This document shows positions 29,564-60,315 of a DNA stretch of 64,000 nt, one piece after another. A program made the position numbers and the translations under genes. Within the stretch, counting starts at the first letter, position 1; each line of letters opens with the position of its first letter. This DNA comes from a virus. Below the pieces are notes generated by a model. It was not told the DNA's origin, ran no database searches, and worked only from the letters and a program-made list of their open reading frames with translations. The DNA lies in the UHGV virus genome UHGV-1374526; one strand, 5' to 3'.

Positions 29564-29818
29564 ATGAAGAAGACCAACGATATTAGTATTGTAGATAATA
29601 AGAGAGTAGGAATCCTCAAGGTGAAATATGATGGAGATACCTTTGCCATCTTTAACTATTGTCGGGAGGGAGACGAGAAGGAACAGTGTTATCCCACGCG
29701 CGAAAGGGCTATAGAAATGGCGAAGATGGTTGCTCGCCATCTCATCCACGCGAATCCCGTTATGACAGAAAGGGGCATTGACCTTTACCCGACAGACTGT
29801 ACAATCCAAGACGAATAA
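29564..29818 (+). CDS. tandem-array paralog 1 (~80-aa family)
   Basis: Shares the FxV...A.FNYC...G....T...A...A.K.AR core with the next five genes. Confidence 0.5.
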   Translation: MKKTNDISIVDNKRVGILKVKYDGDTFAIFNYCREGDEKEQCYPTRERAIEMAKMVARHLIHANPVMTERGIDLYPTDCTIQDE

Positions 29819-29821
29819 ACC

Positions 29822-30061
29822 ATGAACGACAAAGTAGCTATTTTAGAAGACAAAGGATTTGGATTCTTCCGAGTAACTCACTGTGGAAGTGTCATTGCAG
29901 ATTTTCTTTACTGCACAGGCTCTGGTGAACAAGGATATATGACACGAGATTCCGCAAAGAAACTGGCAACGAAGATTGCCCGCTACGTAGTTAGCAGAGG
30001 GACAGTTTGTACCATCGAGGGAGTATCACTTAACCAAATCATTTTCAACATCGATGACTGA
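29822..30061 (+). CDS. tandem-array paralog 2
   Basis: GFFRVTHCGSVIADFLYCTG...TRDSAKKLATKIARYV. 8-nt ATGACTGA overlap with paralog 3. Confidence 0.55.
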   Translation: MNDKVAILEDKGFGFFRVTHCGSVIADFLYCTGSGEQGYMTRDSAKKLATKIARYVVSRGTVCTIEGVSLNQIIFNIDD

Positions 30062-30290
30062 CACTCTAAATATTACCACCATAGATGACCCCGATATCGG
30101 GTTTTTCTGGGTCCTGCTTGAAAACTGTTGCGTTGCCACCTTTTACTATTGCGTGAAAGATGATAGTGGCTTCTTCACCAAGGAGCAAGCTAAGAAACTA
30201 GCCAACAAGCTCGCCCGCAAAATTGAGAAGAGCATGATTATCGAAACCGAAAAGGGAATCAAATTGGAAAGGAACAACATCAATGAATAA
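30054..30290 (+). CDS. tandem-array paralog 3
   Basis: MTDTLNITTIDDP...FFTKEQAKKLANKLARKIEKS. N-terminus near-identical to paralog 5. Confidence 0.55.
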   Translation: MTDTLNITTIDDPDIGFFWVLLENCCVATFYYCVKDDSGFFTKEQAKKLANKLARKIEKSMIIETEKGIKLERNNINE

Positions 30291-30519
30291 CGATTCAGAT
30301 ACCCGTGTTTATGACATCCCTACTAGCGGAATGTTCCGCGTCAGGCACAGAGGAAGTTGCGTCGCCGTTTTCAACTATTGCGTGGCAGATGAAAGCGGCT
30401 TCTTCACCAAGAAGCAAGCTAAGAAACTAGCCATCAAGTTCGCCCGCAAAATTGAGAAGAGCACGGTCATAGAAACAAAGATGGGAATCAAACTTAAAAG
30501 GAACAATACTAATGACTGA
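30283..30519 (+). CDS. tandem-array paralog 4
   Basis: FFTKKQAKKLAIKFARKIEKSTVIETKMGIKLKRNN, nearly identical to the paralog 3 C-terminus. Confidence 0.55.
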   Translation: MNNDSDTRVYDIPTSGMFRVRHRGSCVAVFNYCVADESGFFTKKQAKKLAIKFARKIEKSTVIETKMGIKLKRNNTND

Positions 30520-30760
30520 CACTCTAAATATTACCACCGTAGATGACCCCATTGCCGGATTTTTCCGGGTCATGCTTGAAAACTGTTGCGTTGCCGCCTT
30601 TTACTATTGCACGGAAGGCGAGGAAGGACATTTCACCAAGAAGCAAGCCAAGAAGCTGACCGAGAAGCTAGTCCGCAAAATTGAAAATAGTACGACCATC
30701 AAAACCAAAAAAGGATTCAAACTACTTAAACCGAAAGGGAACGACAATGACCAACGATAA
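30512..30760 (+). CDS. tandem-array paralog 5
   Basis: MTDTLNITTVDDP...HFTKKQAKKLTEKLVRKIENS. Confidence 0.55.
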   Translation: MTDTLNITTVDDPIAGFFRVMLENCCVAAFYYCTEGEEGHFTKKQAKKLTEKLVRKIENSTTIKTKKGFKLLKPKGNDNDQR

Positions 30761-37160: not shown

Positions 37161-38291
37161 ATGGCAACCAAACGTACAGACATATCGAGCGAGACGAAAG
37201 CGAGCGGGGGCATCCCCGCCGCCAAGTCCATTAAGCAGAAGACGATGGACGAGGTGCTTCCGAAGACGAACCCTGACATCCCTCTCCGTCCAATGAATAA
37301 CAACGACCCGAACAAACCCGTCGACGCGAAGGAGATGAACACCATCGCCGCGGCCAATAGTAACCACGGCATCAAGAATCCCCCGGCATCCGCGGCTCCC
37401 GCGGCGGCCCAGTCTCCTAGTCCTTACGGGCGGGGGATTACTGAACCAGCAGTGCCGGGAGCGGTTGACCCTAACAGCGCGGCCTACGCCGCCCAGCAAC
37501 GGGCAACCTATGCGGCGGGCATGCAACAAGCCGCGGCGGGGAAACTCTCTGCGGAGGACAGGCTCATGCTTCGTGGCGTGGACCAGAACATAAGCCGGGG
37601 GCAGATGCCCACCATATCTCCGGCTATGCCGACGCAAGCGACGGCTACACCCCGGCAAGCGACGGCTACCGCTCCAACCGCTAGCCCCGACACCTCCACG
37701 GCTGGGTTCTATGCGCATGCGGAGAAGATGCTTGGCCCGGATAAGTTCAAGACATTTATGTCCATGCCGGAAGCGCAGAGGAACGCGATATATAGCAAGT
37801 TTGTAGAGAGCCGGACCAAGAACGCGCCCGCCGCGGGAGCTACCGCGGGGGCTACCGCGGGAACCACTGCCGCCCCCTCTGGCTCTAGGTTCCCCGCCTC
37901 TGCTCTCCCCTCTGGCAATGCTCCCGTACCCACGAGCGTCCCGACGACTGCGGGTACTGGAACTGCCGAGAGTATGCTACGAACCTTGAGGGATGATACG
38001 GCAAGCCCCGAAGCAAGAGCACAGGCGCAAACATACCTCCGCGTCCGAACCATGTACGCCCAGCCGGAAAAGTTTGGTAAGGAGATTAAGACCCTCGAAA
38101 AATTGGAACGCGCCAAAATAAAGGAACTTAGCAACATGTTCAGGAATAGATTGAATATCCGGGACCCCCGCTTCGCCCGCCAGTACGCCCAGTATCAGGC
38201 CCTGCGGAAGAAAGACCCGCAAGCGAAGCTCACCCTCTACACTGAACTGATGAAGGGACCGGAGTTCACTCACTTGGACTTCCGAAAATAA
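37161..38291 (+). CDS. Ala/Pro/Thr-rich low-complexity protein
   Basis: AAAGATAGATAGTTAAPSG repeats. Lies upstream of the giant gene; a possible internal virion protein. Confidence 0.45.
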   Translation: MATKRTDISSETKASGGIPAAKSIKQKTMDEVLPKTNPDIPLRPMNNNDPNKPVDAKEMNTIAAANSNHGIKNPPASAAPAAAQSPSPYGRGITEPAVPGAVDPNSAAYAAQQRATYAAGMQQAAAGKLSAEDRLMLRGVDQNISRGQMPTISPAMPTQATATPRQATATAPTASPDTSTAGFYAHAEKMLGPDKFKTFMSMPEAQRNAIYSKFVESRTKNAPAAGATAGATAGTTAAPSGSRFPASALPSGNAPVPTSVPTTAGTGTAESMLRTLRDDTASPEARAQAQTYLRVRTMYAQPEKFGKEIKTLEKLERAKIKELSNMFRNRLNIRDPRFARQYAQYQALRKKDPQAKLTLYTELMKGPEFTHLDFRK

Positions 38292-38394: not shown

Positions 38395-41300
38395 ATGGCT
38401 ATTGACTTTAGTACCGCCAATATGTCCGACTTCACTCCGAAGTCGGGAAGCAGTATTGCACGTGAACAGCGAGCCGCAGAAAGGCACGCCGCGTGGCAAG
38501 AGACGCAAGCGCAGAAACAGCAGGACCGAGAACAGAAAGCACTGGACCGCGAGCAAAGGTTAGCGGAAAAGAAACAGACCCGTGCCGAGAAGGGAGCGAC
38601 GGCGACCGCAGACTATGACACCTTCCTCTTTAAGTCTGTTGATGACTTTGCGGAGAAACAGAAAAAGGATGCGGAACACGCAAATAATGTAGAATGGCAA
38701 AATAAATCCCGCGCCCATACGGAACAAGAATGGAAAACCGCCGAGGAAAATAAAGCCCTCGACATCTTGAACAAAGGAAACCGTGGGTACAGCTTTGAGG
38801 GAATCGACTACATGAAAGACTATGTAGACCGCGGGGAAGATGCGCTGGTCGATTTGAAGGCCGCTTCCCGCGGTGATAGCGAGGCCATTAAGAAGCTTGC
38901 CAACAATACGGGACTTACCGTTGTGTCTTCTTCCGAGCTTACGCCTACGCACCCCACCTTCTTATCCCGCTCTGGCTTCGGAAGTGGAGAGGACGGGAAC
39001 CCCGTCGTAACGGAAAAGTTCCTCGCCATTGCCGCGGACAGAAACCGTAACGCAAAGGCGGTTGCCAAAGGCATTGCCAACACAATGGAAAAGGCCCGGA
39101 AGGATTACCTCAACTCGAATCTAGATGTTGGAACGGGTAAACCTACGGCGCAAGCCATCGAGACCGCACCTATTGCTTACACCGCAGAAGAAATAGAAAG
39201 CGTCATCAATACGATTAGGCGCGAAGACATTGGCAACTATCGTGCCGCTAAGGCTCTTTACGACAAACACCGCTCTTCTTCGACGGAAGGCGTGCAGAAG
39301 AAAACCCCCAGCCAAACGAGCGTGGGGGAGCTTGGCGTTGGCGAATTCTCTGATTCAGCACCTTCATTTACTGGGAATGTTTTTGCTGAACTCGCCAACC
39401 TTTCCAAGTCTCCCAGCAAAATGTTCCAGCTTGTCCGCGACTACGGGGATTACCTTTCCCGGAGTACGGAAGATATTGAATCCCCGGAATCTGCTACAGC
39501 GGATGCGAAACAACTCCATACAGACCAAGCAAAACTCATTTCAAAAAAAGAAAAACCTGTTGAGGATAGGATTCGTGAACAGATAGAAACAGCCGACAAA
39601 ATCGTAAGACGCCTCGAAGAGGACTACACTGGCCTTCCCTATCTCGAACTTCGCGACGCGCTTCTCAATCCAGAGGCCGCGGCCTCTGCCCTTCTGTCTT
39701 TAGTCCCCGGTGCTGACATGGACGCAATACGTGCACGGGCAAAGGTCATTACCGAGGAAGTTCGCCGCCAGAAGGACCGCCCTCTGACCGTCGAAAACCC
39801 CGAACAGATTGGCATGAGTGAGGCTATACTGGAAGCCGTGGCCACAAGGTTTCCGGGGGTTCCAAAATCTGCCCTGCGCCAAGCGGGAGTAACCAAACTG
39901 ATTCAGGACTATACCGCCAAAGCCACGCCGAAAGGCACTCTCATGGATGCAGTCAAAGGCGCACTGGCTAACTACCGAAGCACGGCGGGACAAATTGCGG
40001 ACGTACTTACCTTCCAACCGGATAATAGTGTGGGTAAGTACGCCGACCCAATGAGCTTGATGGAATGGAGGAAGGGAACGAGGCGTGGCTCATGGTGGTA
40101 TGGCATGCCGGGCGGCCCGTCCTTTGAAGTCGGACCGGAGAGGTTGAAGGAATACATGGCCCAGTACCATATTGAAAGTACTCGCGATGCCCTCAACTCC
40201 CTCTCCCATGCCGCACGTATGGGTGACTTGGGCGTTGGCCGTGGCAGTCTCTTTGCGTACAATCCGCACACCAAGGAAGTTGATACGAACGCCACGCTCG
40301 AACTGAATCCCAATGCTCTCTACAATGATAAGCTGATGGACCAGAGCATTGAGGCTCTCCGTGCTAGTGGCGCGGACGAGAAGCTTATCAATCGCACCAT
40401 TGAGAAGTTCCAGAACCTCCGCAAGAAATCCGCACAGGAACTTGTGAAGGACAACATGGCATTGGACGAGACGCTGGGGACGCTTCGCGATACGTGGCTT
40501 GGCTCCGGCTTGCAGTTCAACCCTGTCTTGACTGAATCCATGAAGCATCTGGACAAGTACCTTTCCTTCAAGAATTTCTACAACGAACAGAAGGAAGCGG
40601 GCAAGAGCGACGAGGACATCCTCTCCGCATGGCAGGAGAAAGGGCAAGCCACCTTCGATTCTGTTCTCCGTGGGTTACAGATAGGTACACACAAGGCAAT
40701 CGACCTTGGGACAAGTACCGCCTATGGTGCTCTTCTCTTTGCACAGAATGCAGTTGGCAGTCGTGCGGCGATGGAACATACCCGCACCCTCTGGGACCAG
40801 CTGAACAAAAAACAGGAAGCAGAAGCCGAGTTGGTTCGAGGCAATATCCTTGCGGACTATACTGCGGAAATCGCTAACCTCGGCTACCAAATGGTAGCAA
40901 CCGCGGGGGCTGGTAAAGTTGGTGGCCTCGCTGGCCGTGCACTGACACGTACCGCGCTCAATAAATTCATGAAGGCAACGGCTAACGTCGTAGCGAAGCG
41001 GGCCGAAGCTCTTGTCCCTGCCGCCCGTCCGGGATTGGCGGGACGTTTGAGTGGAACTATTCAGCGCAACCTCGACAACCTTGCGGCGTTGAACCTCGAA
41101 CGGGCAGGAGCCGGAGCCGGGGTAAATCTTAGCATCATCTCGCAGGTTGCACCGAATGCTTACTCCGACATCTTCTATACCATTTATGATAGGGAGATGG
41201 AAGGGAAGGAACCGACTGCCGAGAACACGAACAGGGCACAGAGCATTGCCAACATGCGTGCTCTCTTTGGTGCGGCTCTCGTATCTACTGGTAGTACTCT

Positions 41301-44300
41301 CATCAACAACCGCGCAGGTATGGATTCCTTCATGCGTAAGATTGTTGGGGCTAAAAACCTTCGCGGTCAATCTCCATTCCAAACTCTTGAACGGAAGATG
41401 GCCGGATGGAGAAGCAAGCCATTTAAGGAGATGAACACGAAGGAAAAGACGTTTGCCGTTGCTTCCTATCTGTACAGCCAGAGCAAGGCCGTAGTGGAAG
41501 GAGCCACCGAAGAACTGGCAGACGAATTCCAAGAGTGGGCGTTTACCGAACTGGTGAAGAACGGAGAAATCTCCGAATCCTCTATTGCCACTACTGACCA
41601 AGTGATTAGCACAGGCATGAAGATTGCTTTCCTCGGAGGTATCGGCGGCTACGTTGGTAGCCACTTAGCTGGTGAAGGGAACATACGTTTCCAAACCGAA
41701 GCCGCTCCCACTCTCGATGTAAAGGATGCTACTTCCATGCTACCGGATATTACGAAAGATGCGAGCAACATCATCGAGGAAACGGGCAAAGCCATTACCA
41801 AAAACAATGTGCCGGAAAGCTTGGTAGAAACCGGAAAGAAGGTTATCGAGATTGCCGGGGAGAAGGGAGATGCCGCGGAAGTTGCCCGCGAATGGGTGGA
41901 CAAATCCATTGCCCATGAAAGTCTGGCAGTCTCCGATGAAACCCGCAAGGCGTGGGTGGAAGGAGCAACCCGTATGGGCATCAGCAACTTCACCCAGTTC
42001 CGCAACCTAGTGGAACGGGCCTCCGAAATATATACCTATGAGGGCAGTGCCGCGGCAAGCTCATTCATGGCAGAAGCCATTAACGACCTGCCCAATACCC
42101 TGTCATTCCCAAATAAGGAAAACCTCGACACCATGCGCACCATGCTTTCGGAGGCCCTTGATGCTATGGGAGACCGGGTTCAGGTTATCGAAGTAGACGA
42201 CGACCTGTCCATCATTACTACAGGGGACGAGGACCTTGATGCCGCCATTAACGTTATTAACGGATTGACGGAAGCCGCGGCTACCACGGAACCCAAGGAA
42301 TCCCCGGCTACCGCGGAACCCACGGAATCCCCGGTAGCTATTGCCCGGAAGGAGAGGGACAATGCTATTGCCCCCATCACTGCTATGGTAGAGACGGGAG
42401 TAGTTACCCCAGAAGCTACCGCTTCCGTGGATAACATGGATGCGGCAATCACCTCGTTCGACCCCAACACCGGGGCATGGCTCTCATCCGGTTCACCTCT
42501 GGACCGCGGCGCGAAGCTCGTCTCCCTGAACGAGATGACCGGGATTAACGCCCCCATGATTACCAGCAACACGGGAGAAACCGTTGTCATCGCTCCGCAC
42601 GCAAGCATGTACAACACAGGTGAGGGAGGGACACCCAGCACCAAGTGGGGGGACAAGGTCTCCGCTCTCAATCTCCCGACGGATGGGACTGGCGCAAATG
42701 CCTACGGCACGCTTCGCGGCCTTCAAGTTAATGCCTCCCCCGCACAGGCCGCGGCCATTGATGGAGTGCTCCGCGCACTGCATGCCGCTGGTTTGGACGT
42801 CGCTATCCGTGCAACCAATGCCCCGGCGAACATCTCTTCCCCTGCCAGTATCACCTACATGAACGGCACGGACGGGAAGCTTGTCGGCGGTGTCATTGAC
42901 CTGTACGTGAACCGGGATAACCCGATTGAAAGCGTAACGGGAACGGTACTACACGAAGTCATCCACCTCATTGACCGTCATCTTCGTACCACCAACACGG
43001 ACTATTCCCAGCGGATGGATAGGATTAGAAGCGCGATTGCAGAGAACTACAACAACATTGTCGATAGTCTCTCCGCTATGTATGACGCTAGCGTGGACAT
43101 CAATGAGATGAACGCCATCGCCGCGCTCGCTTCCGACCTCAACTACGGTCTCCGCGGTGCGGACGAATTTGCCAGTGTCGCGTTCTCCAATCCTGTCATG
43201 AACTTCATGGTAGCGGAAGCTAGCGGAGACAATATCACCATCACGGATTTGGCTCGCTATGCCGAAGCGGCGGGAGGCCGGAAGCCCGTGCACGTGCGCC
43301 TCGTCGAATGGCTTAAAGATTTGATTAGGGACATCAAAGATACTGCGGACGATATGGACGGAACCACCGCCGCAGAACGCGTGGCTGAATGGGATTCCTA
43401 TGTGGCCCGCGTCGCGGACATGACCCCCGGCAAGTGGTTCGATATGCCTCGCACTCCGTCATGGAAAGTAGATGATACGGATTATACTATGGGCAACGGG
43501 GTAGATTATTTTAACCCGATGGCCTATGAGACCGACATGACCCGGAGATTGTCCTTCGGCCTTGGCGCAGAAATCATTGGCACGAAGGCCGGGAACTGGG
43601 TAACTAGTATTAAGAACGTATGGCAAGGCGTGTCTAAGGGCTTGGACAAAGCAGGCATCAATGTTAAGTCCGAGGAACAGAAGCTGGTTGTGCTGGAACA
43701 AATGGCCAATGTTAATGCGGCGTATGAACGCAGTATTAAACGCATTGACAAAATTGGTGATATGCTTCAACGCCGTGCGGATAATCTGGGCTGGGATGCC
43801 GCTACGCGAAAGAAATGGAGCAAGTCCATTCTTGACATGTCGGGGAATATGGACAACGATATTGACCCTGAAACTGTTGCACGCATTAACGCAGAGGCTC
43901 AAGCAGAAGTTCGTCAGCATGAACAGACCCGCGACTTCCGTATCGCGTTGGCTAAGAAGACTGTCACCGATGCCGTCAATAGGCACGCGGAAGCGGTGCG
44001 TCTGGCTAACTCCCTTGCGCTTAATAGTGAAGGGCGATTGGAAATCAACGACATGATGCGCCGGATTAAAGACATGAGCGGCAAGGGATATGGAGCCATG
44101 CTGGACAAGCAGGTAGCTCTCCCCATGCTCTCCCAGCAGATTCACAAATCTCTCTCCGACCTTGGCTCTCGTATCTCCGCGACGGGGGATGCCAATCTGG
44201 ATATCACCTACTTTGGCCTTGCCCGCGACACGCAAAACTATCTCGCGGATATGATTAACGAAGTGGATAGTCCCTTCTCTATGGATGAACTTCTGGACAG

Positions 44301-47300
44301 GTGGTCCAACCTTCGCAATGACTTCCTCTATGCGGAGAGTACAAACCATCCCGTCATCGCTCCTATGATTCAGGACATCGCTAAGGCACGGGCCGAAGCT
44401 AAACAAATCATCCGGGAAGCCAATGATGATTTCCACGCCGCAACAAAGAGGGCAGGTGTAACTCGCGCTGGCGTAGCTACCCCTGCTGGTTCCGTGTGGC
44501 TGAAACGAGACAACGCTATCCTCAATGCTCGCCGTCAAAAACAAGCGGAGTATATGGCTAAGCGGGATGCCGCTGAACAGTGGCTTCTGTCACAAGGAGT
44601 TGTAGGCCAACTGGTCCACAATGTCATCGCCGATTCCCGTAAAGAAATTGCCGCAACGCAAATCTCTATTGCCAAGCTCATTGGAGATAGCCGTATGGCT
44701 GACAACGCCGCGGAGATGAATTATCTTCATCGCACCTACATGGCCGTTGGACGCCATGCCGGAGACTTCACCCGGACGATGAAGGACATCATCGCAAACC
44801 CCAACGGAGAACTGGCGCAGAAATACGATGGTCTGACGAAACTGTTGCAGGAAGCCGCAATCTCTCATGCCGAAGCGCACCAGAGAGAACTATCCGAAAA
44901 CGTAAGCCAAGTGCTGGACAACATGCAGGCATTGGCCGCGCTCCACGACGAGTTGAAACTTCCGCTGGTGTCAGCTCCCACGGGAGCCTCTTCGAATTAT
45001 AAACTCCTGTTCGAAGGTGTAGCCAAGAACTACAGGACCAGAGAAATTCTTGACTTCATTCAGAACAACTTCGGTCAGGTTCAAATGCTTGCGGACTTGA
45101 GGGACGGCCACAACATCAGTGCCATATATAATAAGGCCATGAGCATGATAGCACAGGCAGACTATCGCACGAAGTCAAAGATGACAGAGAGGAAGGAAAC
45201 TCTGGACATGAATGCCAGAGATAGTTTCCTCGCTGATGTCTTCTCCAGCCTTCCGGGAAAAACGATTGCGGACAAAATCGGCAGTCTTCAATCCCCGGCA
45301 TCCGTGGCTTCCGAAGTGAACAAGGCCATCCCCACTATCCCGACTTCGGCCATTGACCAGATATGGAACACGCCTAATATGAATGCCGCAGAACGACTGG
45401 ACAAGACGCTCAATCTTCTTCGCGGTCAGGCTGGCGTTCTCATGAGGATGAACGGCATGGGCAACGTCATCTCCGCTACCGACTTGAAAGCGTTGCAATA
45501 TCCGGAACTCTCCCGTCTTGCGGTGAACGATGCCATGAAGGCCATTGACGAAGTACTGTCCAAGAAGAGGACGAATGAAGATGCGCTGGCCCAGCGGAAA
45601 CGCTTGCCCGAATGGCAGAGGAAAGCTATGTATGAACTTAGCGACCTCACCATTGGGGATGCCATTGGGACGTTACAGAATACCCTATCCATGCAGTCGA
45701 AGATTGCCGTGAACCAGTTGCTTGCTGACGAGTATACCTCCGTACTGAAAGCGCAGGGTGTGGTCGTACCCCCGAATTCCACGAACCGTACTTCGGACAT
45801 GGTGGAAATCTCCTTGAAGAATACGAAGAATGCGTTGAACGGAATGTACGCCGACAAGGATGTAGCCGATGCCATCTACCGCATCTACAGGCCGAGCGAC
45901 GACATCCTGAATAGCAGGACGGACGACTATAAGGAGGTCCGCGAGTACTGGCAGAAGTCCGGCAAGGGGCAAGGATGGTGGAGTAAGGCGGGTGGCTTGG
46001 CTAACCTTTCTGTCTTAATAGCGAGTCCTAATTCCACGTTACGTAACTTATATGGTACAGTAGCTCAAATGACCCATGCGGGTGCACTTCCATTCACGGG
46101 GAGTAAAGAAATCGCAAAGCTTATCGGAGATTGGAGCCAGATGTATAAACTGCGGAAGTTGTCCCGCGGTAAAGACCTTGCTTCACAGGCTTCCGCGGAT
46201 AGACTGCTGGCCGCGGAAGACAGGTACAACGAGAAGATTCGCTACTGGCAAGAGCTTGGTCTGCTGGACGCAGGTCAAGGGGAGTTCCTGCGCAACGTCT
46301 GGAAGTCTGACGAGTTCAGTAAGATGGCAGGAGAATTTGAAGAAGTGAATGAGGATTCCTTCTTCAAACTGGCCGAAGCTCTGAACGAGAAACAGGAACG
46401 GACGAAGGGCGAGGTGGCTAAGGATGTCGCCAAGACGGCGGGCAAAGTCGTAGCATGGCCCATCAAAACGATGTCCTTCGCCTATGGCTTGCCGGACGCG
46501 GCGGCCAAGATTGCTCTCTTCACTAACCAGAGAGCGATTGCCGATACCCAATTAAAGGTACAACTGGCACGGGCGAAAGGCAAGGCCAACCCCAATGCAC
46601 GGGACCAGATACTCCTTGACGCGAGCCAGACTACCCAGAGTTGGGATGCTTATGTGGACAGGTATACTGCCAACATGGTGAAGAGCTTGCTCCCCACGGG
46701 TTCGCGTACTCCTTCGTGGGTGAAAACCCTGAATATAGTTGCGGCTCCGTTCTTCATGTTCCAGTACCATACCTTCCAGTCTGTAGCCTACAACCTTGGC
46801 CACGCCATAGGTGAAGGGGTAGACGGTGTGTGGGCTATCAATAACGGCATGAAGAAGGAGGGGGCTTACCTCTTGGGACGCGCTATCCTTCGCATCGCTG
46901 GTTCCGCAGTAACTATTGGTGCAACCTCTGCGGTCTCTTCCTGGGTTGCCCGACAGATTATCGCCAGTGTCTTGGGAGATGACGATGACCATAAAATCAT
47001 TGACGACGCGGAAGTCATGAGGAAGCTGGCAGATAGTGGGCTAATTCCTGACTATGATAAGTTCGGGGACTTGATTGGCATCATAGATATGAAGCGACAT
47101 GAGTTCGAGTATTTGACCCTTGAATACATGAACCCGTTCAAGACCATCAGGGTGTTAGCCAAACCCCTGCCCAGCCTCTTCATGGATATGGATGTGGACA
47201 AGTGGGGGATGAACAAGGTTGCCGAACTGAAAAACCTGCTGGAAAATACGGTGCTTGAAGAATCCCTCCTTCTGAACACAGCTACTGAATTGTTTAATGA

Positions 47301-48090
47301 GGAAGACTTCAATTACAAGCATAGCCTCTCCGGTGATGAAAGCGTCAACGTTCTCCCGGCAGTCGGCAACGCAATCCTGTTGGCCGCAGGGCTGAACCCC
47401 TCGTTCGGCAGTGGACACACGTGGCAAGCCCTTGAACGTGTCGCGACGGTTGCCAATAAAAAGATTCCCGTCTACGGCTGGTTAGTCAAGTCTGGTAAAC
47501 AAATGTTTAGTGATACGCCCGACATGAGTGCCGAGGCATACGGGTTACAGACCTTTGGTACTGGTCTCCGTCGTCCGAAGGATTTGACCGAAGCCCTTGC
47601 CGCCGGGTTAAAGAATGCCAACGCGGCAGTCACTAAGTCGAAGCGAATGAGCGTCCTTCGTCCGGACTTCTACAAGAGAATGGAATCCGGGGTGGATGTG
47701 GAATCTATGGAAGCCGTGGAAACCGCGGATGCCGTGAAGAATTTCACCAAGCTAGTCAATAGTGTCCGGTTTGTTACGGAAATTACAAACATGCTTGACC
47801 CCGCTCTGCGGAAGGAAGTTCTGGCTTCCGCGATTGAGAGTTCCGGTATGAGTGCCAAGACCTACGGCGCGGCCATGAAAGGCATCATGCCCTACATCAT
47901 TAGCCCGCAAGCAGGACGTGAGGCTATCGCGAAACTCAACCGCGAATTGCAGAAGTCTAATACCACGGACGAGGGCAAACGCCTAATCGAAGAGCAGAAG
48001 AAACTCATTATCAACCTCATGAGGAAGGGTAGCATTCAGATTGATGGGGCATTGAGTGCGGAGGAAATTCATAATCGGATGAAGCAGTAG
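38395..48090 (+). CDS. giant 3231-aa protein with embedded HExxH zincin-like motif (virion/ejection polyvalent-protein or tape-measure-like candidate)
   Basis: Uninterrupted 9.7-kb ORF. TVLHEVIHLIDRH at about nt 42950. Largely helical, low-complexity composition with coiled-coil N-terminus. No RNAP motifs seen. Confidence 0.65.
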   Translation: MAIDFSTANMSDFTPKSGSSIAREQRAAERHAAWQETQAQKQQDREQKALDREQRLAEKKQTRAEKGATATADYDTFLFKSVDDFAEKQKKDAEHANNVEWQNKSRAHTEQEWKTAEENKALDILNKGNRGYSFEGIDYMKDYVDRGEDALVDLKAASRGDSEAIKKLANNTGLTVVSSSELTPTHPTFLSRSGFGSGEDGNPVVTEKFLAIAADRNRNAKAVAKGIANTMEKARKDYLNSNLDVGTGKPTAQAIETAPIAYTAEEIESVINTIRREDIGNYRAAKALYDKHRSSSTEGVQKKTPSQTSVGELGVGEFSDSAPSFTGNVFAELANLSKSPSKMFQLVRDYGDYLSRSTEDIESPESATADAKQLHTDQAKLISKKEKPVEDRIREQIETADKIVRRLEEDYTGLPYLELRDALLNPEAAASALLSLVPGADMDAIRARAKVITEEVRRQKDRPLTVENPEQIGMSEAILEAVATRFPGVPKSALRQAGVTKLIQDYTAKATPKGTLMDAVKGALANYRSTAGQIADVLTFQPDNSVGKYADPMSLMEWRKGTRRGSWWYGMPGGPSFEVGPERLKEYMAQYHIESTRDALNSLSHAARMGDLGVGRGSLFAYNPHTKEVDTNATLELNPNALYNDKLMDQSIEALRASGADEKLINRTIEKFQNLRKKSAQELVKDNMALDETLGTLRDTWLGSGLQFNPVLTESMKHLDKYLSFKNFYNEQKEAGKSDEDILSAWQEKGQATFDSVLRGLQIGTHKAIDLGTSTAYGALLFAQNAVGSRAAMEHTRTLWDQLNKKQEAEAELVRGNILADYTAEIANLGYQMVATAGAGKVGGLAGRALTRTALNKFMKATANVVAKRAEALVPAARPGLAGRLSGTIQRNLDNLAALNLERAGAGAGVNLSIISQVAPNAYSDIFYTIYDREMEGKEPTAENTNRAQSIANMRALFGAALVSTGSTLINNRAGMDSFMRKIVGAKNLRGQSPFQTLERKMAGWRSKPFKEMNTKEKTFAVASYLYSQSKAVVEGATEELADEFQEWAFTELVKNGEISESSIATTDQVISTGMKIAFLGGIGGYVGSHLAGEGNIRFQTEAAPTLDVKDATSMLPDITKDASNIIEETGKAITKNNVPESLVETGKKVIEIAGEKGDAAEVAREWVDKSIAHESLAVSDETRKAWVEGATRMGISNFTQFRNLVERASEIYTYEGSAAASSFMAEAINDLPNTLSFPNKENLDTMRTMLSEALDAMGDRVQVIEVDDDLSIITTGDEDLDAAINVINGLTEAAATTEPKESPATAEPTESPVAIARKERDNAIAPITAMVETGVVTPEATASVDNMDAAITSFDPNTGAWLSSGSPLDRGAKLVSLNEMTGINAPMITSNTGETVVIAPHASMYNTGEGGTPSTKWGDKVSALNLPTDGTGANAYGTLRGLQVNASPAQAAAIDGVLRALHAAGLDVAIRATNAPANISSPASITYMNGTDGKLVGGVIDLYVNRDNPIESVTGTVLHEVIHLIDRHLRTTNTDYSQRMDRIRSAIAENYNNIVDSLSAMYDASVDINEMNAIAALASDLNYGLRGADEFASVAFSNPVMNFMVAEASGDNITITDLARYAEAAGGRKPVHVRLVEWLKDLIRDIKDTADDMDGTTAAERVAEWDSYVARVADMTPGKWFDMPRTPSWKVDDTDYTMGNGVDYFNPMAYETDMTRRLSFGLGAEIIGTKAGNWVTSIKNVWQGVSKGLDKAGINVKSEEQKLVVLEQMANVNAAYERSIKRIDKIGDMLQRRADNLGWDAATRKKWSKSILDMSGNMDNDIDPETVARINAEAQAEVRQHEQTRDFRIALAKKTVTDAVNRHAEAVRLANSLALNSEGRLEINDMMRRIKDMSGKGYGAMLDKQVALPMLSQQIHKSLSDLGSRISATGDANLDITYFGLARDTQNYLADMINEVDSPFSMDELLDRWSNLRNDFLYAESTNHPVIAPMIQDIAKARAEAKQIIREANDDFHAATKRAGVTRAGVATPAGSVWLKRDNAILNARRQKQAEYMAKRDAAEQWLLSQGVVGQLVHNVIADSRKEIAATQISIAKLIGDSRMADNAAEMNYLHRTYMAVGRHAGDFTRTMKDIIANPNGELAQKYDGLTKLLQEAAISHAEAHQRELSENVSQVLDNMQALAALHDELKLPLVSAPTGASSNYKLLFEGVAKNYRTREILDFIQNNFGQVQMLADLRDGHNISAIYNKAMSMIAQADYRTKSKMTERKETLDMNARDSFLADVFSSLPGKTIADKIGSLQSPASVASEVNKAIPTIPTSAIDQIWNTPNMNAAERLDKTLNLLRGQAGVLMRMNGMGNVISATDLKALQYPELSRLAVNDAMKAIDEVLSKKRTNEDALAQRKRLPEWQRKAMYELSDLTIGDAIGTLQNTLSMQSKIAVNQLLADEYTSVLKAQGVVVPPNSTNRTSDMVEISLKNTKNALNGMYADKDVADAIYRIYRPSDDILNSRTDDYKEVREYWQKSGKGQGWWSKAGGLANLSVLIASPNSTLRNLYGTVAQMTHAGALPFTGSKEIAKLIGDWSQMYKLRKLSRGKDLASQASADRLLAAEDRYNEKIRYWQELGLLDAGQGEFLRNVWKSDEFSKMAGEFEEVNEDSFFKLAEALNEKQERTKGEVAKDVAKTAGKVVAWPIKTMSFAYGLPDAAAKIALFTNQRAIADTQLKVQLARAKGKANPNARDQILLDASQTTQSWDAYVDRYTANMVKSLLPTGSRTPSWVKTLNIVAAPFFMFQYHTFQSVAYNLGHAIGEGVDGVWAINNGMKKEGAYLLGRAILRIAGSAVTIGATSAVSSWVARQIIASVLGDDDDHKIIDDAEVMRKLADSGLIPDYDKFGDLIGIIDMKRHEFEYLTLEYMNPFKTIRVLAKPLPSLFMDMDVDKWGMNKVAELKNLLENTVLEESLLLNTATELFNEEDFNYKHSLSGDESVNVLPAVGNAILLAAGLNPSFGSGHTWQALERVATVANKKIPVYGWLVKSGKQMFSDTPDMSAEAYGLQTFGTGLRRPKDLTEALAAGLKNANAAVTKSKRMSVLRPDFYKRMESGVDVESMEAVETADAVKNFTKLVNSVRFVTEITNMLDPALRKEVLASAIESSGMSAKTYGAAMKGIMPYIISPQAGREAIAKLNRELQKSNTTDEGKRLIEEQKKLIINLMRKGSIQIDGALSAEEIHNRMKQ

Positions 48091-48106: not shown

Positions 48107-48135
48107 TTGACCTTCGGGGGCATGGGAGATATAAT
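48107..48135 (+). promoter_or_regulatory. sigma70-like promoter TTGACC-17-TATAAT inside perfect palindrome; leaderless
   Basis: Palindrome CATGGGAGA-TATAAT-TCTCCCATG spans 48121-48144. ATG at 48142. Confidence 0.55.
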
Positions 48136-48141
48136 TCTCCC

Positions 48142-48747
48142 ATGCCCTCTTTTCGTATAGTACCCAATCATATCATGGCCACCCCTCCGGGAGGCTGGAA
48201 GTTTATTGTCCCTGAATCCATGAGTGTCAGGCTCAAGGGAACCAAGGTTTCCGCGGGTTCACTGGAACAACTCCGCAAGGCGGTCGCCCGTCTCTTCATG
48301 AATAACGGAGAACCCTTTCAGGTTGCGCTCTTTGAATCAGAGCTTTGCGCTTCTCTCCCTCCCCAGTACTGCACCACCTGCGGTGATAAGGGAATTGAAT
48401 GGAAGGAGTATGAACCCATGAGTGCCAAGAAGATATTGGCCTTCTTCGGTACTATGGTTCTCTGGTATCGACGGGGACACAGGTTTGTAGACGAGGCAGA
48501 AGCTCGCCGCCGCTATGCTATCTGCGCCTCCTGTCCGTATGCTACCTCTACGCCTCCCCCGGATTTAGAGAAGCAAGGGTGCGCCACATGTGGAGCCGAA
48601 GGAGCTGGCCGCAAATTCCTCAAGGAAAAAATCTCCGGGCTTGCGGACCTGACCAACGGGAAGGCCCCTCTCTATTGTACCTTATGTGGTTGCGACCTAT
48701 CAGTAAAGGCTCACTTCGATATTGAATCTGACTGCTGGCTAAAATAG
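48142..48747 (+). CDS. Cys-rich (zinc-binding) protein
   Basis: CTTCGD, CASCPY, CATCGAEG and CTLCGC clusters. Confidence 0.5.
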   Translation: MPSFRIVPNHIMATPPGGWKFIVPESMSVRLKGTKVSAGSLEQLRKAVARLFMNNGEPFQVALFESELCASLPPQYCTTCGDKGIEWKEYEPMSAKKILAFFGTMVLWYRRGHRFVDEAEARRRYAICASCPYATSTPPPDLEKQGCATCGAEGAGRKFLKEKISGLADLTNGKAPLYCTLCGCDLSVKAHFDIESDCWLK

Positions 48748-49147: not shown

Positions 49148-49233
49148 GTATTGACATCATAGGTACTGCATGGTATAAAGAATCCACAACGACATCATTC
49201 TGTTTGGACTGTAAGTTGTTTGGGTTCTAAGCG

Positions 49234-49272
49234 AAAACCCCGGAAGGAAATATCTTCCGGGGTTTTTGTTTT
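49234..49272. terminator. bidirectional intrinsic terminator between convergent gene blocks
   Basis: aaaa-ccccggaag-gaaatat-cttccgggg-tttttgtttt. A-run and T-run on either side. Confidence 0.65.
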
Positions 49273-55390: not shown

Positions 55391-55424
55391 ATCTGTTTTG
55401 TTTTTGTAGAGCGATGTGAGGTTT

Positions 55425-55778
55425 CTAAATATCCAGTTTCCAGCGAATAGTTGGGTAGCCGTCCTCACTGGATTCAAGGTAAAGGAAGATGCCGTCACGA
55501 GATATTACGAAGGTCACGCTATCTGGGACGTACCCGCACAGATAAATGTATATATCCTTGACAACCATAGAATAGGGCAACCTATAGGTTCGTATGGGGA
55601 AGATGTTTTCTCCAGTCTTTGATGATATTGTTTGTTGAAGACAAAGTAGCATCCGCTTTTTCCGACTAGATATTTTGAAGCTGATTGCAAGAGGGTCCTG
55701 CTCTTTCGGCTTATCGGGGTACGGCTTCCTTCCAGTTGTGGTTTCTGCTTGGCTAAGTATTAGGTCAAAATTCTCCAT
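55425..55778 (-). CDS. hypothetical protein
   Basis: 117 aa, preceded by the TTAGAAACCTCA motif. Confidence 0.4.
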   Translation of the reverse strand: MENFDLILSQAETTTGRKPYPDKPKEQDPLAISFKISSRKKRMLLCLQQTISSKTGENIFPIRTYRLPYSMVVKDIYIYLCGYVPDSVTFVISRDGIFLYLESSEDGYPTIRWKLDI

Positions 55779-55809
55779 AATAATTTCTAGCGTGCTTTGA
55801 GGTTTCTAA

Positions 55810-56163
55810 TTAGAAGATAGGTCGAGTGAATCCCATGTCTTCAAGGCAACGGGCGAGGCGATTTGCTTCCAGCTGATGCCGCTTTAGGCGTCGGCGTATG
55901 ATGTCAATGCCCCATTCTACCAGTAGCTGGAAGACAAACCAGCCCGTGATGATGACGCACCATGTAAGGTACGATACGAGAAGTTCACCAGTGGCAAGGA
56001 GATAACCTAAACAAACCAGCGCACTTACGAGGGCAACAATGTCCACTACCGAGTGCAGGTGCTCCACGAGGCTCCACAAGGCATGAAGCCTATCGGCTCG
56101 CCCGATGTGGTGGAGACAGTTCTTGCGGAGGATGACGACGTTAGATTCTTTTTCGGATGTCAT
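55810..56163 (-). CDS. small membrane protein
   Basis: TM segments LVSALVCLGYLLATG and VIITGWFVFQLLVEWGIDII. Confidence 0.4.
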   Translation of the reverse strand: MTSEKESNVVILRKNCLHHIGRADRLHALWSLVEHLHSVVDIVALVSALVCLGYLLATGELLVSYLTWCVIITGWFVFQLLVEWGIDIIRRRLKRHQLEANRLARCLEDMGFTRPIF

Positions 56164-56193
56164 ACTATAGAGCTATGTGAGGTTTCTAAGGGT

Positions 56194-56799
56194 TCAACGG
56201 AGTACGAGCTTCACGGTTTCCAGATTCAATTCATCGTGCCATTTGTTGCTCGTAAACTTCACCATGCAGGGGAGGAAGAAACGTTCTGCCAGCTTGCGAA
56301 CCTTTATGGAGTTAAGTTTATTCATGGATTCCTTATCGGGTGTGAGGAATCGGAAGCGCATATAGGTGAGGCTACCGTCAACCATGAAGTCCACCGCCCC
56401 CGCTTCCTGCGCAATACGCAACCCCACTTCCTGCCAGTTCTGATTAACCACCGCAATAAAGTGCTTTGCCAGTTCTATAGCATCCCCTACAGTCATAGCC
56501 GCCGTTTCCGCAAGTTTCCACACCGTGCCATTCCACTTCAACTTGTGGAGCCGGACAATGCACGCACCATTGTGTGTGCGTTCCAGTTCGATTGCGTAGG
56601 GCCGCATGTACGGCTTAACATACACCGTGCCTTCTCCATCCCACTCGGAAGGCCTGTCTATCCTATGGGATATTACACCTGCCTTAAAAGAAAAGATTGC
56701 AGGTTGAAGTTTATTGATTTGATTTGTGAGTTTAAGCCATTCCGTGCGGGAAAGTTCATCACGTTTCCTGCCCTTAATATCAATGTCAAATGCAGTCAT
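56194..56799 (-). CDS. hypothetical protein
   Basis: 201-aa ORF. Confidence 0.45.
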   Translation of the reverse strand: MTAFDIDIKGRKRDELSRTEWLKLTNQINKLQPAIFSFKAGVISHRIDRPSEWDGEGTVYVKPYMRPYAIELERTHNGACIVRLHKLKWNGTVWKLAETAAMTVGDAIELAKHFIAVVNQNWQEVGLRIAQEAGAVDFMVDGSLTYMRFRFLTPDKESMNKLNSIKVRKLAERFFLPCMVKFTSNKWHDELNLETVKLVLR

Positions 56800-56860
56800 A
56801 ATTTTGTAGTGTTCTTTGTTGGTTCTAAGAGAAAAGATAATACTCTATCAGGTTTTTACT

Positions 56861-57190
56861 TTAGTATGTATGATACTGTCCTTCAAGGATATTTGCATAG
56901 GCTTCAACGCGTTCGGTAGATACGATATGAAAGCCGTTGCAACTTGCGAGCCGTTCCATATCCCGCATTTGCCGGGTAGTGGTTTGTGAATATTCTTTGG
57001 TCGTAATATACAGTACTTTACCTCGGCGGTCGACGGTGGCAACGTGCGTTTGATAGGAGAAAAGTCGGGTGCGCTTCCATGACATGGAGCGCAAACGCTC
57101 TCCGTATAATCCAGTCCGCAAGGGAGACTTGCCACTTTCTTTTCTGCCTTCAAGGTATTCCTTGCCTAATTTTTCAATGTAGGTTCTCAT
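56861..57190 (-). CDS. hypothetical protein
   Basis: 109-aa ORF. Confidence 0.4.
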   Translation of the reverse strand: MRTYIEKLGKEYLEGRKESGKSPLRTGLYGERLRSMSWKRTRLFSYQTHVATVDRRGKVLYITTKEYSQTTTRQMRDMERLASCNGFHIVSTERVEAYANILEGQYHTY

Positions 57191-57227
57191 GGTGTTTTAT
57201 TGTTTAGGTTTTCAGTTGTATGATAAA

Positions 57228-57554
57228 TTAGAGCGGCCAAGAAATAGTTTCCGGGGAATCAGAAAGGGCAAGTACAAAGTCAGTTTCAAACTGTCTTATC
57301 ACAATGTACCCTTGTTCCGGCGTATATCCTTTAAGTTCTCCCAGAATGTACCAAGAATCCAGCCTGATTTTAATCTCACTTCCCCGGGGTAGGGTGGGAA
57401 GTAGCTTCCTTGCTTTTTCGATTCCCTTGCATACCCTATCCGTAACGGTAAGCATGAGGGCGGTATCTTCCTTCCAGTTATGGGGCAAGATTGTCATCTT
57501 GTCAGGGTCTGATACGTCCATTTCGTCATAGTCTAATTTTAGTATTTCTTTCAT
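57228..57554 (-). CDS. hypothetical protein
   Basis: 108-aa ORF. Confidence 0.45.
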   Translation of the reverse strand: MKEILKLDYDEMDVSDPDKMTILPHNWKEDTALMLTVTDRVCKGIEKARKLLPTLPRGSEIKIRLDSWYILGELKGYTPEQGYIVIRQFETDFVLALSDSPETISWPL

Positions 57555-57641
57555 AAGTTATTTCTTTCTAATGGTGTTTTATTGTTTGGTTAGAGTTATT
57601 TGAGGGTTCTAATAAATAGGGTAGCTGGGGCGGGGTTTAAG

Positions 57642-58464: not shown

Positions 58465-58492
58465 AGTTTAGCAGATTTTCTTATCTTGTCAA
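58465..58492 (-). promoter_or_regulatory. leftward promoter cassette copy (TTGACAAGATAAGAAAATCTGCTAAACTG)
   Basis: -35 TTGACA and -10 TAAACT on the minus strand, followed by leader hairpin gcgggg/ccccgc at 58436-58453. Confidence 0.55.
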
Positions 58493-59011: not shown

Positions 59012-59039
59012 TGATGAATGTACTTTAGCAGATTTTCTT
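59012..59039 (-). promoter_or_regulatory. leftward promoter cassette copy
   Basis: TTGACAAGATAAGAAAATCTGCTAAAGT on the minus strand. Confidence 0.55.
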
Positions 59040-59109
59040 ATCTTGTCAAATACTTTTTGTAGAGCGGCGTAGTTATTCACGGTCTGTAATTTATGATTGG
59101 TTTATTGTT

Positions 59110-59264
59110 AAACCCCGGAATCCCCGGAACCCGTTGCACCCGATATCCCCCGCATTCCGGGGGCGGGAATTATTCCTTTGTCTTTCTACTTTTTCTTTCT
59201 ATTTGGTTAGAGTTATTTGACGGGTTCCGGGGGTTCCGGGGTTTAAATGTTCCACGTGGAACAA
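59110..59264. repeat. iteron/inverted-repeat locus B: 24-bp arms AAACCCCGGAATCCCCGGAACCCG / CGGGTTCCGGGGGTTCCGGGGTTT (1 mismatch) separated by about 87 bp, plus palindrome TGTTCCACGTGGAACA
   Basis: Arms at 59110-59133 and 59221-59244. Palindrome at 59249-59264. Non-coding 317-nt gap. Confidence 0.65.
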
Positions 59265-59276
59265 GCCGCAAGTGGT

Positions 59277-59807
59277 TTATATTCTTCCAGTTGCCAGCGT
59301 TTGGCCGTGCATCGTGCGAACCCAGAAATTAACGATATCACGGGGACGGGGCGATACATTGTGCCCGTTCATATCGGTGAAAGTATGTCCCATTTCTACC
59401 AAGCCAATCAGGTTGCGGATAGTACTACGCAGGGTTTGATTTCCTTTCAGGTACACCTTTACCCGGCTACCGTCTGTAAGCTTGAGTTCAAGGTAGCAGT
59501 TAGTCATCCGGCAACCCGGATTTATCCATGACAAGACGGCGCCCATGTAGCGGGGCAGGACATAGTATTTTACACAGGGGCAGGGGGAACCGAAAGCCGG
59601 AGTGGCAGAATGAAGGGCAACCTGCTGGCCTTCAACGAGGTAGGCAAGATAGTAGTCTTTTTCCCACTCTTCAATGTTTTCAATGTCATCAGGGGCGAGG
59701 CTTTCATCTTCCCCACACGCCAAGTAATTGAGGGCATAGGTGGGAATGTCATGGATAAGGGCATAGTCTGATACTTTAAGAACTTCCGGTTTAGTTGTAG
59801 TCTTCAT
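59277..59807 (-). CDS. hypothetical protein
   Basis: 176-aa ORF. Confidence 0.45.
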   Translation of the reverse strand: MKTTTKPEVLKVSDYALIHDIPTYALNYLACGEDESLAPDDIENIEEWEKDYYLAYLVEGQQVALHSATPAFGSPCPCVKYYVLPRYMGAVLSWINPGCRMTNCYLELKLTDGSRVKVYLKGNQTLRSTIRNLIGLVEMGHTFTDMNGHNVSPRPRDIVNFWVRTMHGQTLATGRI

Positions 59808-59861
59808 AATATGGTTGCTTTCTATTGTTTTATTGTTGTTTGATTTTATAGGGCGGCGTAG

Positions 59862-60191
59862 TTATTCAATGGGAAGCGGGAATAATTGAGCATGGGAAGC
59901 TTTAGCTACTGGCTGGCAGAACCGTTGTTCCAGATACTGGTTAATTTCCGCCGGGTCGTAGGTACACCAAGCCCCTAACTCATTCTCTTTCACCGCCTTC
60001 CACAATCGGGCTATGTCAGAATCATCTAATTCTGGCAGGGCGTCCCACGGGTATATGTTAAGCAGGGCGGCAATGGGGCGTGCATGCGAGGATGACTTGG
60101 CGAAAAAGATAAGAGACAGAAGGCCTTCGCCGTTTTCGTAGAATGCCCATGCCGGGATTTCGTTGTCTTTCAATGTGATTTGAGTGTTCAT
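59862..60191 (-). CDS. early-region paralog A (MN.QI.LKD.E...WA.YENG.G.LSL family)
   Basis: Aligns along its length with the 62324..62692 product (HARP.AA...I.PWD shared). Confidence 0.5.
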   Translation of the reverse strand: MNTQITLKDNEIPAWAFYENGEGLLSLIFFAKSSSHARPIAALLNIYPWDALPELDDSDIARLWKAVKENELGAWCTYDPAEINQYLEQRFCQPVAKASHAQLFPLPIE

Positions 60192-60250
60192 GATATAGTG
60201 TTTTTTAGGTTTGAGGTTATGCGGGAGACAAGCTCCCGCTTGCTGATTTT

Positions 60251-60278: not shown

Positions 60279-60315
60279 ATACTTTTTTAGGGCGGTGTAA
60301 CTTTTCAGGGGGAAC

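Follow-up and report, generated by a model that had tools for sequence, protein, structure and literature searches.

The window analysed here, a 64,000-nucleotide stretch of the uncultured virus genome UHGV-1374526, raises the question of what a phage does with a single protein of 3231 amino acids (aa) that contains no cysteine and is encoded by one open reading frame (ORF) at 38395..48090 on the plus strand. The gene probably encodes a virion ejection (pilot) protein, a cysteine-free counterpart of phage N4 gp50 without the polymerase module, in a very divergent uncultured gut phage of ~72 kb. N4 gp50 is a virion RNA polymerase (vRNAP) and, together with gp51 and gp52, makes up the ejection proteins of N4 (PMC13434306, 2026). 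It consists of a domain at the N-terminus (NTD, residues 1-906) that is unresolved in cryo-electron microscopy maps, a low-complexity linker (907-1006), a T7-like RNA polymerase (RNAP) domain (Pol, 1007-2101), and a C-terminal domain (CTD) divided into C1 (2124-2375), which carries a conserved HExxH motif, and C2 (2376-3500), which is mostly alpha-helical and has no structural homologue (PMC13434306). Encapsidation of gp50 needs the CTD and injection needs the NTD (PMC13492108).

For two thirds of the 3500-residue N4 vRNAP, the NTD and the CTD, "injection" and "encapsidation" are the only functions known. A gut-phage lineage that turns up often in assemblies and seems to keep the CTD-like part, with its enigmatic HExxH domain, but not the polymerase would separate the role in ejection and packaging from transcription. 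A sequence-only reading of the window had offered an ejection protein, a tape measure protein, and a polyvalent virion effector as options for the giant gene. The first of these is favoured by homology to the C1 domain of the N4 vRNAP, the total lack of cysteine, and the position of the gene at the end of the late operon.

The giant protein and its family

The frame is single and unbroken from ATG to stop over 3231 codons, as had been claimed, and its annotated start is supported by the MAIDF N-terminus, which is conserved among the homologues. A copy search covered 5.8 billion proteins and scored 400 matches; among the 120 listed, from which the identity and length figures are taken, it gave at least 120 full-length copies from independent assemblies that are 96-100% identical and 3222-3243 aa long. 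These copies often lie on contigs of 64-76 kb, and one near-identical copy is MGV_14780 from the Metagenomic Gut Virus catalogue (human gut). Since intact full-length copies recur in independent assemblies, more than 200 of them in all, the frame is no assembly artefact, and splitting by frameshifts, which had been raised as a concern, is seen neither in these copies nor in seven distant colinear clusters. In 39 near-identical copies the substitutions are scattered over the entire protein, and the length changes only at aa ~380-386 and in a Pro/Thr-rich linker at aa ~1294-1307.

An exhaustive phmmer search of 1.84 billion cluster representatives with aa 1320-2519 yielded fragments and only three distant relatives of full length (3211-3381 aa; identities of 45%, 30%, and 28%), and two word-indexed searches seeded by the distant relatives brought the family to eight sequence clusters. 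The seven diverged clusters (24-77% identity, 3199-3470 aa) are colinear with the giant protein end to end, with fairly even conservation, and their members all lie on uncultured phage contigs of ~70 kb. No relative was found in 185,579 bacterial and archaeal species genomes, which leaves no prophage or host clue. Judged by sequence, the entire 3.2-kaa protein is one conserved unit of a small phage-only family, because the homologues are colinear over their full length and no relative occurs among the bacterial and archaeal genomes. Additionally, complete E. coli genomes gave no match, megablast and tblastn of the gene against 50,697 GenBank phage records gave none, Pfam and PHROGs were negative, and neither the single sequence nor the family profile matched Protein Data Bank (PDB) sequences.

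The giant protein has 0 cysteines in 3231 aa, whereas the other ORFs of the window average 1.68% cysteine (P~1e-24), and the seven homologues have 0, 0, 0, 1, 1, 1, and 3. The same lack is found in nine of nine Schitoviridae vRNAPs (N4 and eight diverse others; 3068-3644 aa, 30,989 residues in total). Gp50, gp51, and gp52 of N4 contain no cysteine, compared with an average of 0.86% in the remaining N4 proteins, and the gp51/gp52 homologues of five other phages are likewise free of it. The ORF immediately before the giant gene (37161..38291, plus strand) encodes a 376-aa protein that is cysteine-free in three diverged phages (window 37161-38291; L002 8801-9898; L004 8635-9888) and is a candidate co-ejected partner by analogy with gp51 and gp52, while the 247-aa and 971-aa upstream proteins are not cysteine-free. 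The lack of cysteine is a criterion observed in the present analysis and not a published one; a literature search on cysteine-free ejection proteins returned nothing relevant, and the word "cysteine" is absent from the N4 studies PMC13434306 and PMC13492108. Total lack of cysteine is proposed as a simple mark in the sequence by which ejected proteins of uncultured phages might be found.

Relation to the N4 virion RNA polymerase

An HExxH motif is present at residue 2049-2403 in all nine Schitoviridae vRNAPs. The two families were compared by local hhalign profile-profile tests in which the alignments were shallow (Neff ~3-4) and secondary structure was not scored. The whole gut-phage family against the whole N4 family gives one notable alignment, which places HExxH on HExxH and then runs colinear into C2 (P=4.5e-5). 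The segment aa 1321-1720 matches the N4-family C1 with a probability (Prob) of 91%, P=1.1e-6, and a score of 54.2 over 186 columns, whereas P is >=0.058 when the same segment is set against N4 NTD, Pol, or C2 and >=0.14 with reversed templates. When the columns of the C1 template are shuffled, sixty times, the score falls to 11.9±1.9 from the observed 54.2, and sixty shuffles in 8-column blocks, which keep the motifs, score 22.7±3.9 with a maximum of 38.6, leaving the observed score ~8 standard deviations higher. With the HExxH columns deleted a match of P=0.008 remains, upstream. The positions aligned with top confidence set tIHEaxH on xxxHElvHa and xEFasvxlSNP on nEFxawxltN, and a motif (N/D)EFxxxxxxN is common to the gut-phage HExxH domain (DEFASVxFSN) and N4 C1 (NEFMAWGLAN). 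In an hmmsearch with the gut-phage HExxH domain, the C1 region was the best or second-best domain in eight of the nine vRNAPs. Homology of the HExxH domain (aa ~1435-1648) to CTD-C1 of the N4 vRNAP is well supported by these profile comparisons.

A second block gives a weaker match further along the chain. The segment aa 2487-2810 aligns with the last ~320 aa of N4 C2 with P=0.0037 and a score of 30.8, and block shuffles of the C2 end score 17.8±2.8 with a maximum of 26.3 (z~4.6 for the observed score). This alignment sets N2551 on N3225 and D2701 (DAAAK) on D3371 (DFIAK), residues that are family-invariant on both sides, with spacings of 150 and 146 aa. The comparison with C2 as a whole did not reach significance, and among the reversed controls one gave P=0.016; a colinear relation of this segment to the end of CTD-C2 is suggestive only at the level of profiles. 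HExxH lies ~1290 aa before the point where the C2-like block ends; in the nine vRNAPs it lies 1019-1312 aa before the C-terminus. An hhalign comparison of aa 1-1320 (in three pieces) and of the C-terminal extension with N4 NTD, Pol, C2, gp51, gp52, and gp53 and with the three upstream proteins found nothing.

Near its N-terminus the protein has a charged, low-complexity, coiled-coil-like stretch (aa ~25-110; 38467..38724, plus strand, as are all segments that follow) that is poorly conserved across clades and includes the charged repeats noticed earlier, KQQDREQKALDREQRLAEKKQTRAEK, at aa 41-66. The sequence-only reading had called the protein mostly low-complexity. That description fits this stretch and the PT-rich linker at aa ~1291-1315, while the sequence elsewhere is ordinary and evenly conserved. 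An alignment of the homologues defines a conserved orphan N-terminal region (aa ~111-1290; 38725..42264) with blocks that include FAYNPxTKEVxxNATLxxNPxALY, INNRAGM..RK.VGAK, and AVEGAxEELADEFxEW, and in which no similarity to N4 NTD, N4 Pol, T7-like RNAP, or gp51/52/53 was found. The flexible linker that follows (aa ~1291-1320; 42265..42354) is rich in Pro, Thr, and Glu, and indels are concentrated in it when near-identical copies are compared. The HExxH domain (aa 1435-1648; 42697..43338), delimited by its profile-profile homology to the Schitoviridae CTD-C1 and by an AlphaFold2 model, contains the motif HEVIHLIDRH (aa 1520-1529; 42952..42981), seen in the homologue alignment, and the second motif common to N4 C1, DEFASVAFSN (aa 1590-1599; 43162..43191). 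The middle region (aa ~1649-2486; 43339..45852) is conserved and predicted to be all-alpha; it is placed as the bulk of N4 CTD-C2, to which no significant similarity was found. The block with weak colinear similarity to the C2 end (aa 2487-2810; 45853..46824) is followed by a conserved C-terminal extension (aa 2811-3231; 46825..48087), which is mostly alpha-helical in the model and has no counterpart in N4 gp50.

A model of aa 2032-3231 is nearly all alpha with a mean predicted local distance difference test (pLDDT) of 61, and Foldseek with this model found no RNAP and nothing else significant. The AlphaFold2 models are of moderate confidence, and the fold libraries gave no full-length N4 structure and may predate such structures. 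Regular expressions for Walker, GDD, DxDxD, and motif-B patterns gave no conserved match in the giant protein, and Pfam gave no lytic transglycosylase domain. Transmembrane helices are ruled out by a maximum Kyte-Doolittle 19-residue mean of 1.38.

As a separate observation, the vRNAP of Ruegeria phage V21 (L007 1044-11942) carries a second HExxH, ILIHEAGHLVDNH, at aa 1174-1190, far upstream of its C1 motif. It is nearer the gut-phage HExxHLxDxH form than the C1 motifs of N4-like phages are, and the match of the gut-phage motif to this HExxH at aa 1178 covers 17 residues only.

The shared domain could also belong to a protein that never enters the virion, such as a scaffold or a host-takeover factor acting inside the cell and sharing one domain with N4 gp50. 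Association with the virion is argued from N4, and beyond the small family itself no relative can be detected for most of the protein, both of which would suit such a role. This is nonetheless a rather improbable explanation, as the gene lies in the late, structural operon, total lack of cysteine is specifically common to the ejected proteins in N4, and the two N4-like blocks are colinear in order and spacing.

The HExxH site

The motif HEVIH at residue 1520, within TVLHEVIHLIDRH (aa 1517-1529), is where the earlier reading had put it and is the sole HExxH of the giant protein, for which the composition (40 His, 216 Glu) gives a chance expectation of ~0.03. HExxH is retained in 14 of 15 diverse homologues. 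Every one of these members has H1520, H1524, and D1527; E1521 occurs in 14 of them, and P0134 lacks H1529. The member P0130 (L004 10001-20227) has HKAAH where its sister sequences have HEAAH, which, if real, would be a natural loss of the putative catalytic Glu. In the DEFASVxFSNP block downstream of HExxH, residues E1591, F1592, N1599, and P1600 are invariant in the 15 members. The Glu of AIAENY that had been pointed out earlier is present downstream as E1550, but it does not hold as a third metal ligand, because its position is occupied by E, D, A, or S. E1591 is a plausible and better candidate for a third ligand of the gluzincin type, since it is invariant and shared with the NEF of N4 while E1550 is variable. 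The arrangement HExxH...EFxxxxxxN looks like a gluzincin-like metal site formed by H1520, H1524, and probably E1591.

An AlphaFold2 model of aa 1320-1720, built from the 15-sequence alignment, has a pLDDT of 65.8 and a predicted template modelling score (pTM) of 0.64. In it a helix precedes a three-stranded sheet, after which come the HExxH helix (model residues 195-214) and a helical bundle, a layout that is like that of a zincin in so far as the model can be trusted. Foldseek with this model gave the minimal zincin 3e11 as top match with a non-significant E=0.67, and the weak structural matches fall on several zincins. When the 15 members were scanned against Pfam, the sole relevant match was one member's to Peptidase_M91 (E=0.006), and no significant sequence or fold match of the domain to any known curated zincin family was found.

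Conservation of the HExxH site in the gut-phage family and the N4-like family alike argues for a functional site, with catalysis predicted at most. Given the lineage with the E-to-K change and the lack of a reported activity for the N4 counterpart, the site may or may not be catalytic; neither PMC13434306 nor PMC13492108 reports a peptidase activity or a metal for C1. The gut-phage family offers a route to testing what this conserved site does.

A polyvalent virion effector whose main job is the delivery of an active zincin metallopeptidase into the host would account for the HExxH in 14 of 15 members and the invariant E1591, for the zincin-like topology of the model, and for the Peptidase_M91 match, which is to an NleD-type effector. 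Such an effector is quite unlikely to be the whole explanation of the protein. The domain has no significant structural or family match and makes up ~7% of a protein whose conservation is even along its full length, one lineage has HKAAH, and the homologous domain of N4 belongs to a CTD involved in encapsidation and autoinhibition. No further enzymatic domain is recognisable in the 3231 aa, and the effector option of the sequence-only reading is unsupported.

Transcription, gene order, and known systems

The giant protein contains no T/DxxGR, no motif A, B, or C, and no DFDxD by regular expression, and the homologues do not conserve its DxDxD strings, which lie at 1278, 1820, and 2931. By hhalign, aa 1-1320 and the whole family against N4 Pol give P>=0.12. 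A six-member T7-like RNAP alignment served as positive control: N4 Pol against it reaches Prob 97.5% and P=6e-12, and the whole 3400-column N4 profile still reaches P=6e-11, whereas the N-terminal region and the whole gut-phage family give P=0.64 and 0.51. The earlier remark that RNAP motifs are lacking is borne out by both the regular expressions and the calibrated profile test, and as far as profiles see, a T7-like polymerase module appears to be absent from the giant protein.

Six copies of a strong sigma70-type promoter family (58465-58492, 59022-59049, 60251-60278, 62258-62285, 62763-62790, and 63537-63564, minus strand) precede small early-type genes at 58-64 kb. They are near-consensus, with an A-tract, TTGACA, a spacer of 16 nt, and TGnTAAAnT, and they lie inside repeats of 55-113 nt. 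No hairpin-promoter family was seen in a non-exhaustive search. No RNAP Pfam match occurs among the precomputed hits for those stretches of the ~72-kb genome that were fetched (roughly its first 21 kb plus 36-66 kb) or in the gene scans of the window, and no N4-type RNAPII genes appeared in any scan made. The ~8 kb that a ~72-kb contig has upstream of the window carry a VapE/D5-like primase-helicase and no RNAP. The sigma70 promoters ahead of early-type genes and the lack of an RNAP family fit early transcription by the host RNAP. Six promoters this near the sigma70 consensus imply a host with canonical sigma70 recognition, which on this sequence criterion would not be a member of the Bacteroidota. 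Together with the PG_binding_3 endolysin, the promoters point to Gram-negative gut Proteobacteria as candidate hosts.

The giant protein could still be a genuine vRNAP in which aa ~110-1290 form a polymerase that is too diverged or of another fold, transcribing the first-entering genes as gp50 does in N4. Its size class, zero cysteine, homology to CTD-C1, and gene position all match gp50, and a conserved region of ~1180 aa lies directly upstream of the linker and C1, as does the 1097-aa Pol domain of N4. This possibility is unlikely. The catalytic motifs and a conserved DxDxD are lacking, the profiles fail to detect N4 Pol or T7-like RNAPs where the N4-T7 control succeeds, Ala/Gly-rich stretches in aa ~110-1290 are untypical of polymerase cores, and the early-type genes have six canonical sigma70 promoters with neither a hairpin-promoter family nor RNAPII genes seen alongside. 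A tentative extension of the ejection-protein reading is that the lineage is naturally polymerase-less. The HExxH-C1 and helical C2 parts might then be an autonomous, older encapsidation and DNA-ejectosome device, onto which N4-like phages grafted a polymerase or from which this lineage lost it, and the HExxH site might be a working metal-dependent hydrolase in envelope passage.

The plus arm of the window encodes, in order, DNA polymerase A, a helicase, an exonuclease, and TerL, then ORFs of 756, 105, 405, 418, 99, 323, and 715 aa. Numerous small genes and one for an endolysin come next, followed by ORFs of 971, 247, and 376 aa and the giant ORF. A terminator-like hairpin with a 14-bp stem and a T-run (48116..48149, plus strand) lies 26 nt past the giant stop, overlaps the start of the next ORF, and closes the late operon. 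One or two small plus-strand ORFs follow, and a bidirectional terminator with a 19-bp stem (49229-49271) marks the point where the minus arm converges. The late operon of N4 encodes the portal protein (763 aa), proteins of 115 and 405 aa, the capsid protein (401 aa), proteins of 208, 299, and 885 aa, gp52 (150 aa), gp51 (644 aa), and gp50 (3500 aa), and it likewise converges with the other arm. The parallel between the two late operons in order and size is striking. In a relative with 29% identity the same layout is kept, with ORFs of 843, 248, and 417 aa followed by the giant gene. The synteny argument is one of order and size only, because no sequence similarity to the N4 counterparts was found. 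In a phmmer comparison of all window ORFs with all ORFs of nine N4-like loci only thymidylate synthase matched, and hhalign of the three upstream proteins against gp51, gp52, and gp53 showed no similarity.

A tape measure protein of a long-tailed phage, the remaining option of the sequence-only reading, would be very long and largely alpha-helical and encoded in the late operon, as this protein is. This identification is highly improbable and has been set aside. The gene is the last of its operon and is followed by a terminator, with no recognisable distal-tail or baseplate genes after it and no recognisable tail tube gene or chaperone-frameshift pair before it. The protein has an HExxH domain of alpha/beta type and a PT linker that is flexible, and its sole detectable relatives are podovirus ejection proteins. 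Tape measure proteins scale at ~1.5 Å per residue, and a tail of ~480 nm would correspond to the giant protein, which counts against this role as well.

Several other genes and repeats of the window were recorded. The 405-aa (13807-15024) and 418-aa (15237-16493) ORFs are cysteine-free, as are N4 gp57 and gp56. By position and size relative to gp57 (405 aa) and gp56 (401 aa) they are the putative scaffold and major capsid protein, and no family library recognises either of them. Cysteine-rich ORFs contrast with the giant ORF: 22781-23806 (341 aa, 27 Cys), 48142-48747 (201 aa, 11 Cys), which directly follows the giant gene, and 62189-62719 (176 aa, 14 Cys); these may be zinc-binding proteins. 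A tandem array of five paralogous small genes (29564-30760) encodes proteins of 78-84 aa that are 25-32% identical to the first and share the core G..V....A.F.YC...T...A. Two intergenic elements are repeated in 59055-61628 / 55403-57615, one in six copies of TGAATAACTACGCCGCCCTATAAAA on the minus strand, mostly ~30-60 nt upstream of a start codon, and the other in four copies with the core GAGGTTTCTAA; a function as middle promoters or as operator sites is possible. Close to where the window and contig end (63677-63748, 63861-64000) there are 9-bp tandem repeats of the types CCCGGTTCC, repeated ~7 times, and GGGTTCAAC / GGGTATCAGGATTCAAC, and related sequence forms an inverted pair at 59108-59134 / 59220-59246. 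These repeats and the inverted pair may represent an origin, iterons, or a terminal element.

Several points weigh against an ejection protein of the gp50 type that lacks a polymerase. The portal, capsid, gp51, gp52, and gp53 have no detectable sequence similarity to their N4 counterparts. The homology to N4 lies in one domain, aligned at an hhalign probability of 91% with Neff ~3-4, the C2 match is weak, and the placing of the giant protein in the virion draws on analogy. Additionally, aa 1-1290 are about the size of the Pol domain and hold the same position relative to the linker and C1 as N4 Pol, and the sigma70 promoters do not prove that the small minus-strand genes are the first to be transcribed.

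If the giant protein is an ejection protein, it would be synthesised late and enter the capsid by way of its CTD-like part, as the CTD is required for encapsidation in N4. On infection it would leave through the narrow tail as a chain that is loosely folded, like beads on a string, and we infer that zero cysteine would spare it disulfide trapping during passage of the oxidising periplasm. It would help to build or traverse a trans-envelope conduit for DNA delivery, probably jointly with the cysteine-free protein of 376 aa encoded upstream, after which the host RNAP would transcribe the early genes. The HExxH...EFxxxxxxN site may cleave a target in the envelope or host, or it may have a structural or regulatory role, as perhaps in N4. 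The lineage offers a natural comparison for the passage of megadalton-scale protein through a tail channel of ~35 Å.

Known systems share some of these features. The core proteins gp14, gp15, and gp16 of T7-like podoviruses are capsid-internal, are expelled before the DNA, and bridge the Gram-negative envelope. They are late, adjacent, large, and helical, and the same role is proposed for the giant protein by analogy. The giant protein is 2.5 times the length of gp16, and no sequence similarity to the T7-like internal core proteins was found. With zincins and gluzincins (3e11, Peptidase_M91, and the thermolysin-type HExxH...E) it shares an HExxH on a predicted helix after a small beta-sheet and, as in gluzincins, an invariant Glu ~67-71 residues downstream, in a helix. 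It differs from them in having no significant sequence or structure match and a lineage with Lys in place of the catalytic Glu. Like the crAss-like vRNAP (phi14:2 gp66, two-barrel, DFDxD) it is a giant protein of a gut-phage lineage, with packaging in the virion proposed here; unlike that enzyme it has no DFDxD and its DxDxD strings are not conserved, and a profile search against PDB sequences, among which gp66 is assumed to be included, returned nothing. Polyvalent proteins are likewise very large, possibly virion-delivered, and equipped with a zincin-like module (Iyer et al. 2017, PMC5512222). They are, however, strings of several recognisable effector domains, whereas only the HExxH domain is recognisable in the giant protein, and apart from the weak zincin signal, searches of the 15 members against Pfam, PHROGs, and PDB sequences detected no domain.

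The closest comparison is with the Schitoviridae vRNAP (PDB 9PNR, 11GP). The gut-phage protein differs from it in having no detectable T7-like polymerase domain, 1290 N-terminal aa with no detected relation to N4 NTD or Pol, and an extra C-terminal extension of 420 aa. It has no PHROG, Pfam, or BLAST similarity, the portal, capsid, TerL, and replication genes of the phage are not recognisably N4-like, and its early genes have sigma70 promoters instead of hairpin promoters, with no RNAPII genes seen. The two are alike in being single polypeptides of 3.1-3.6 kaa with zero cysteine, encoded by the last gene of a late operon that is convergent with the other transcription arm. Both have a flexible low-complexity linker and a domain with HExxH and (N/D)EFxxxxxxN, and in both this domain is followed by a long region that is alpha-helical (as predicted, in the gut-phage protein), with a weak colinear match of the gut-phage protein to the end of C2.

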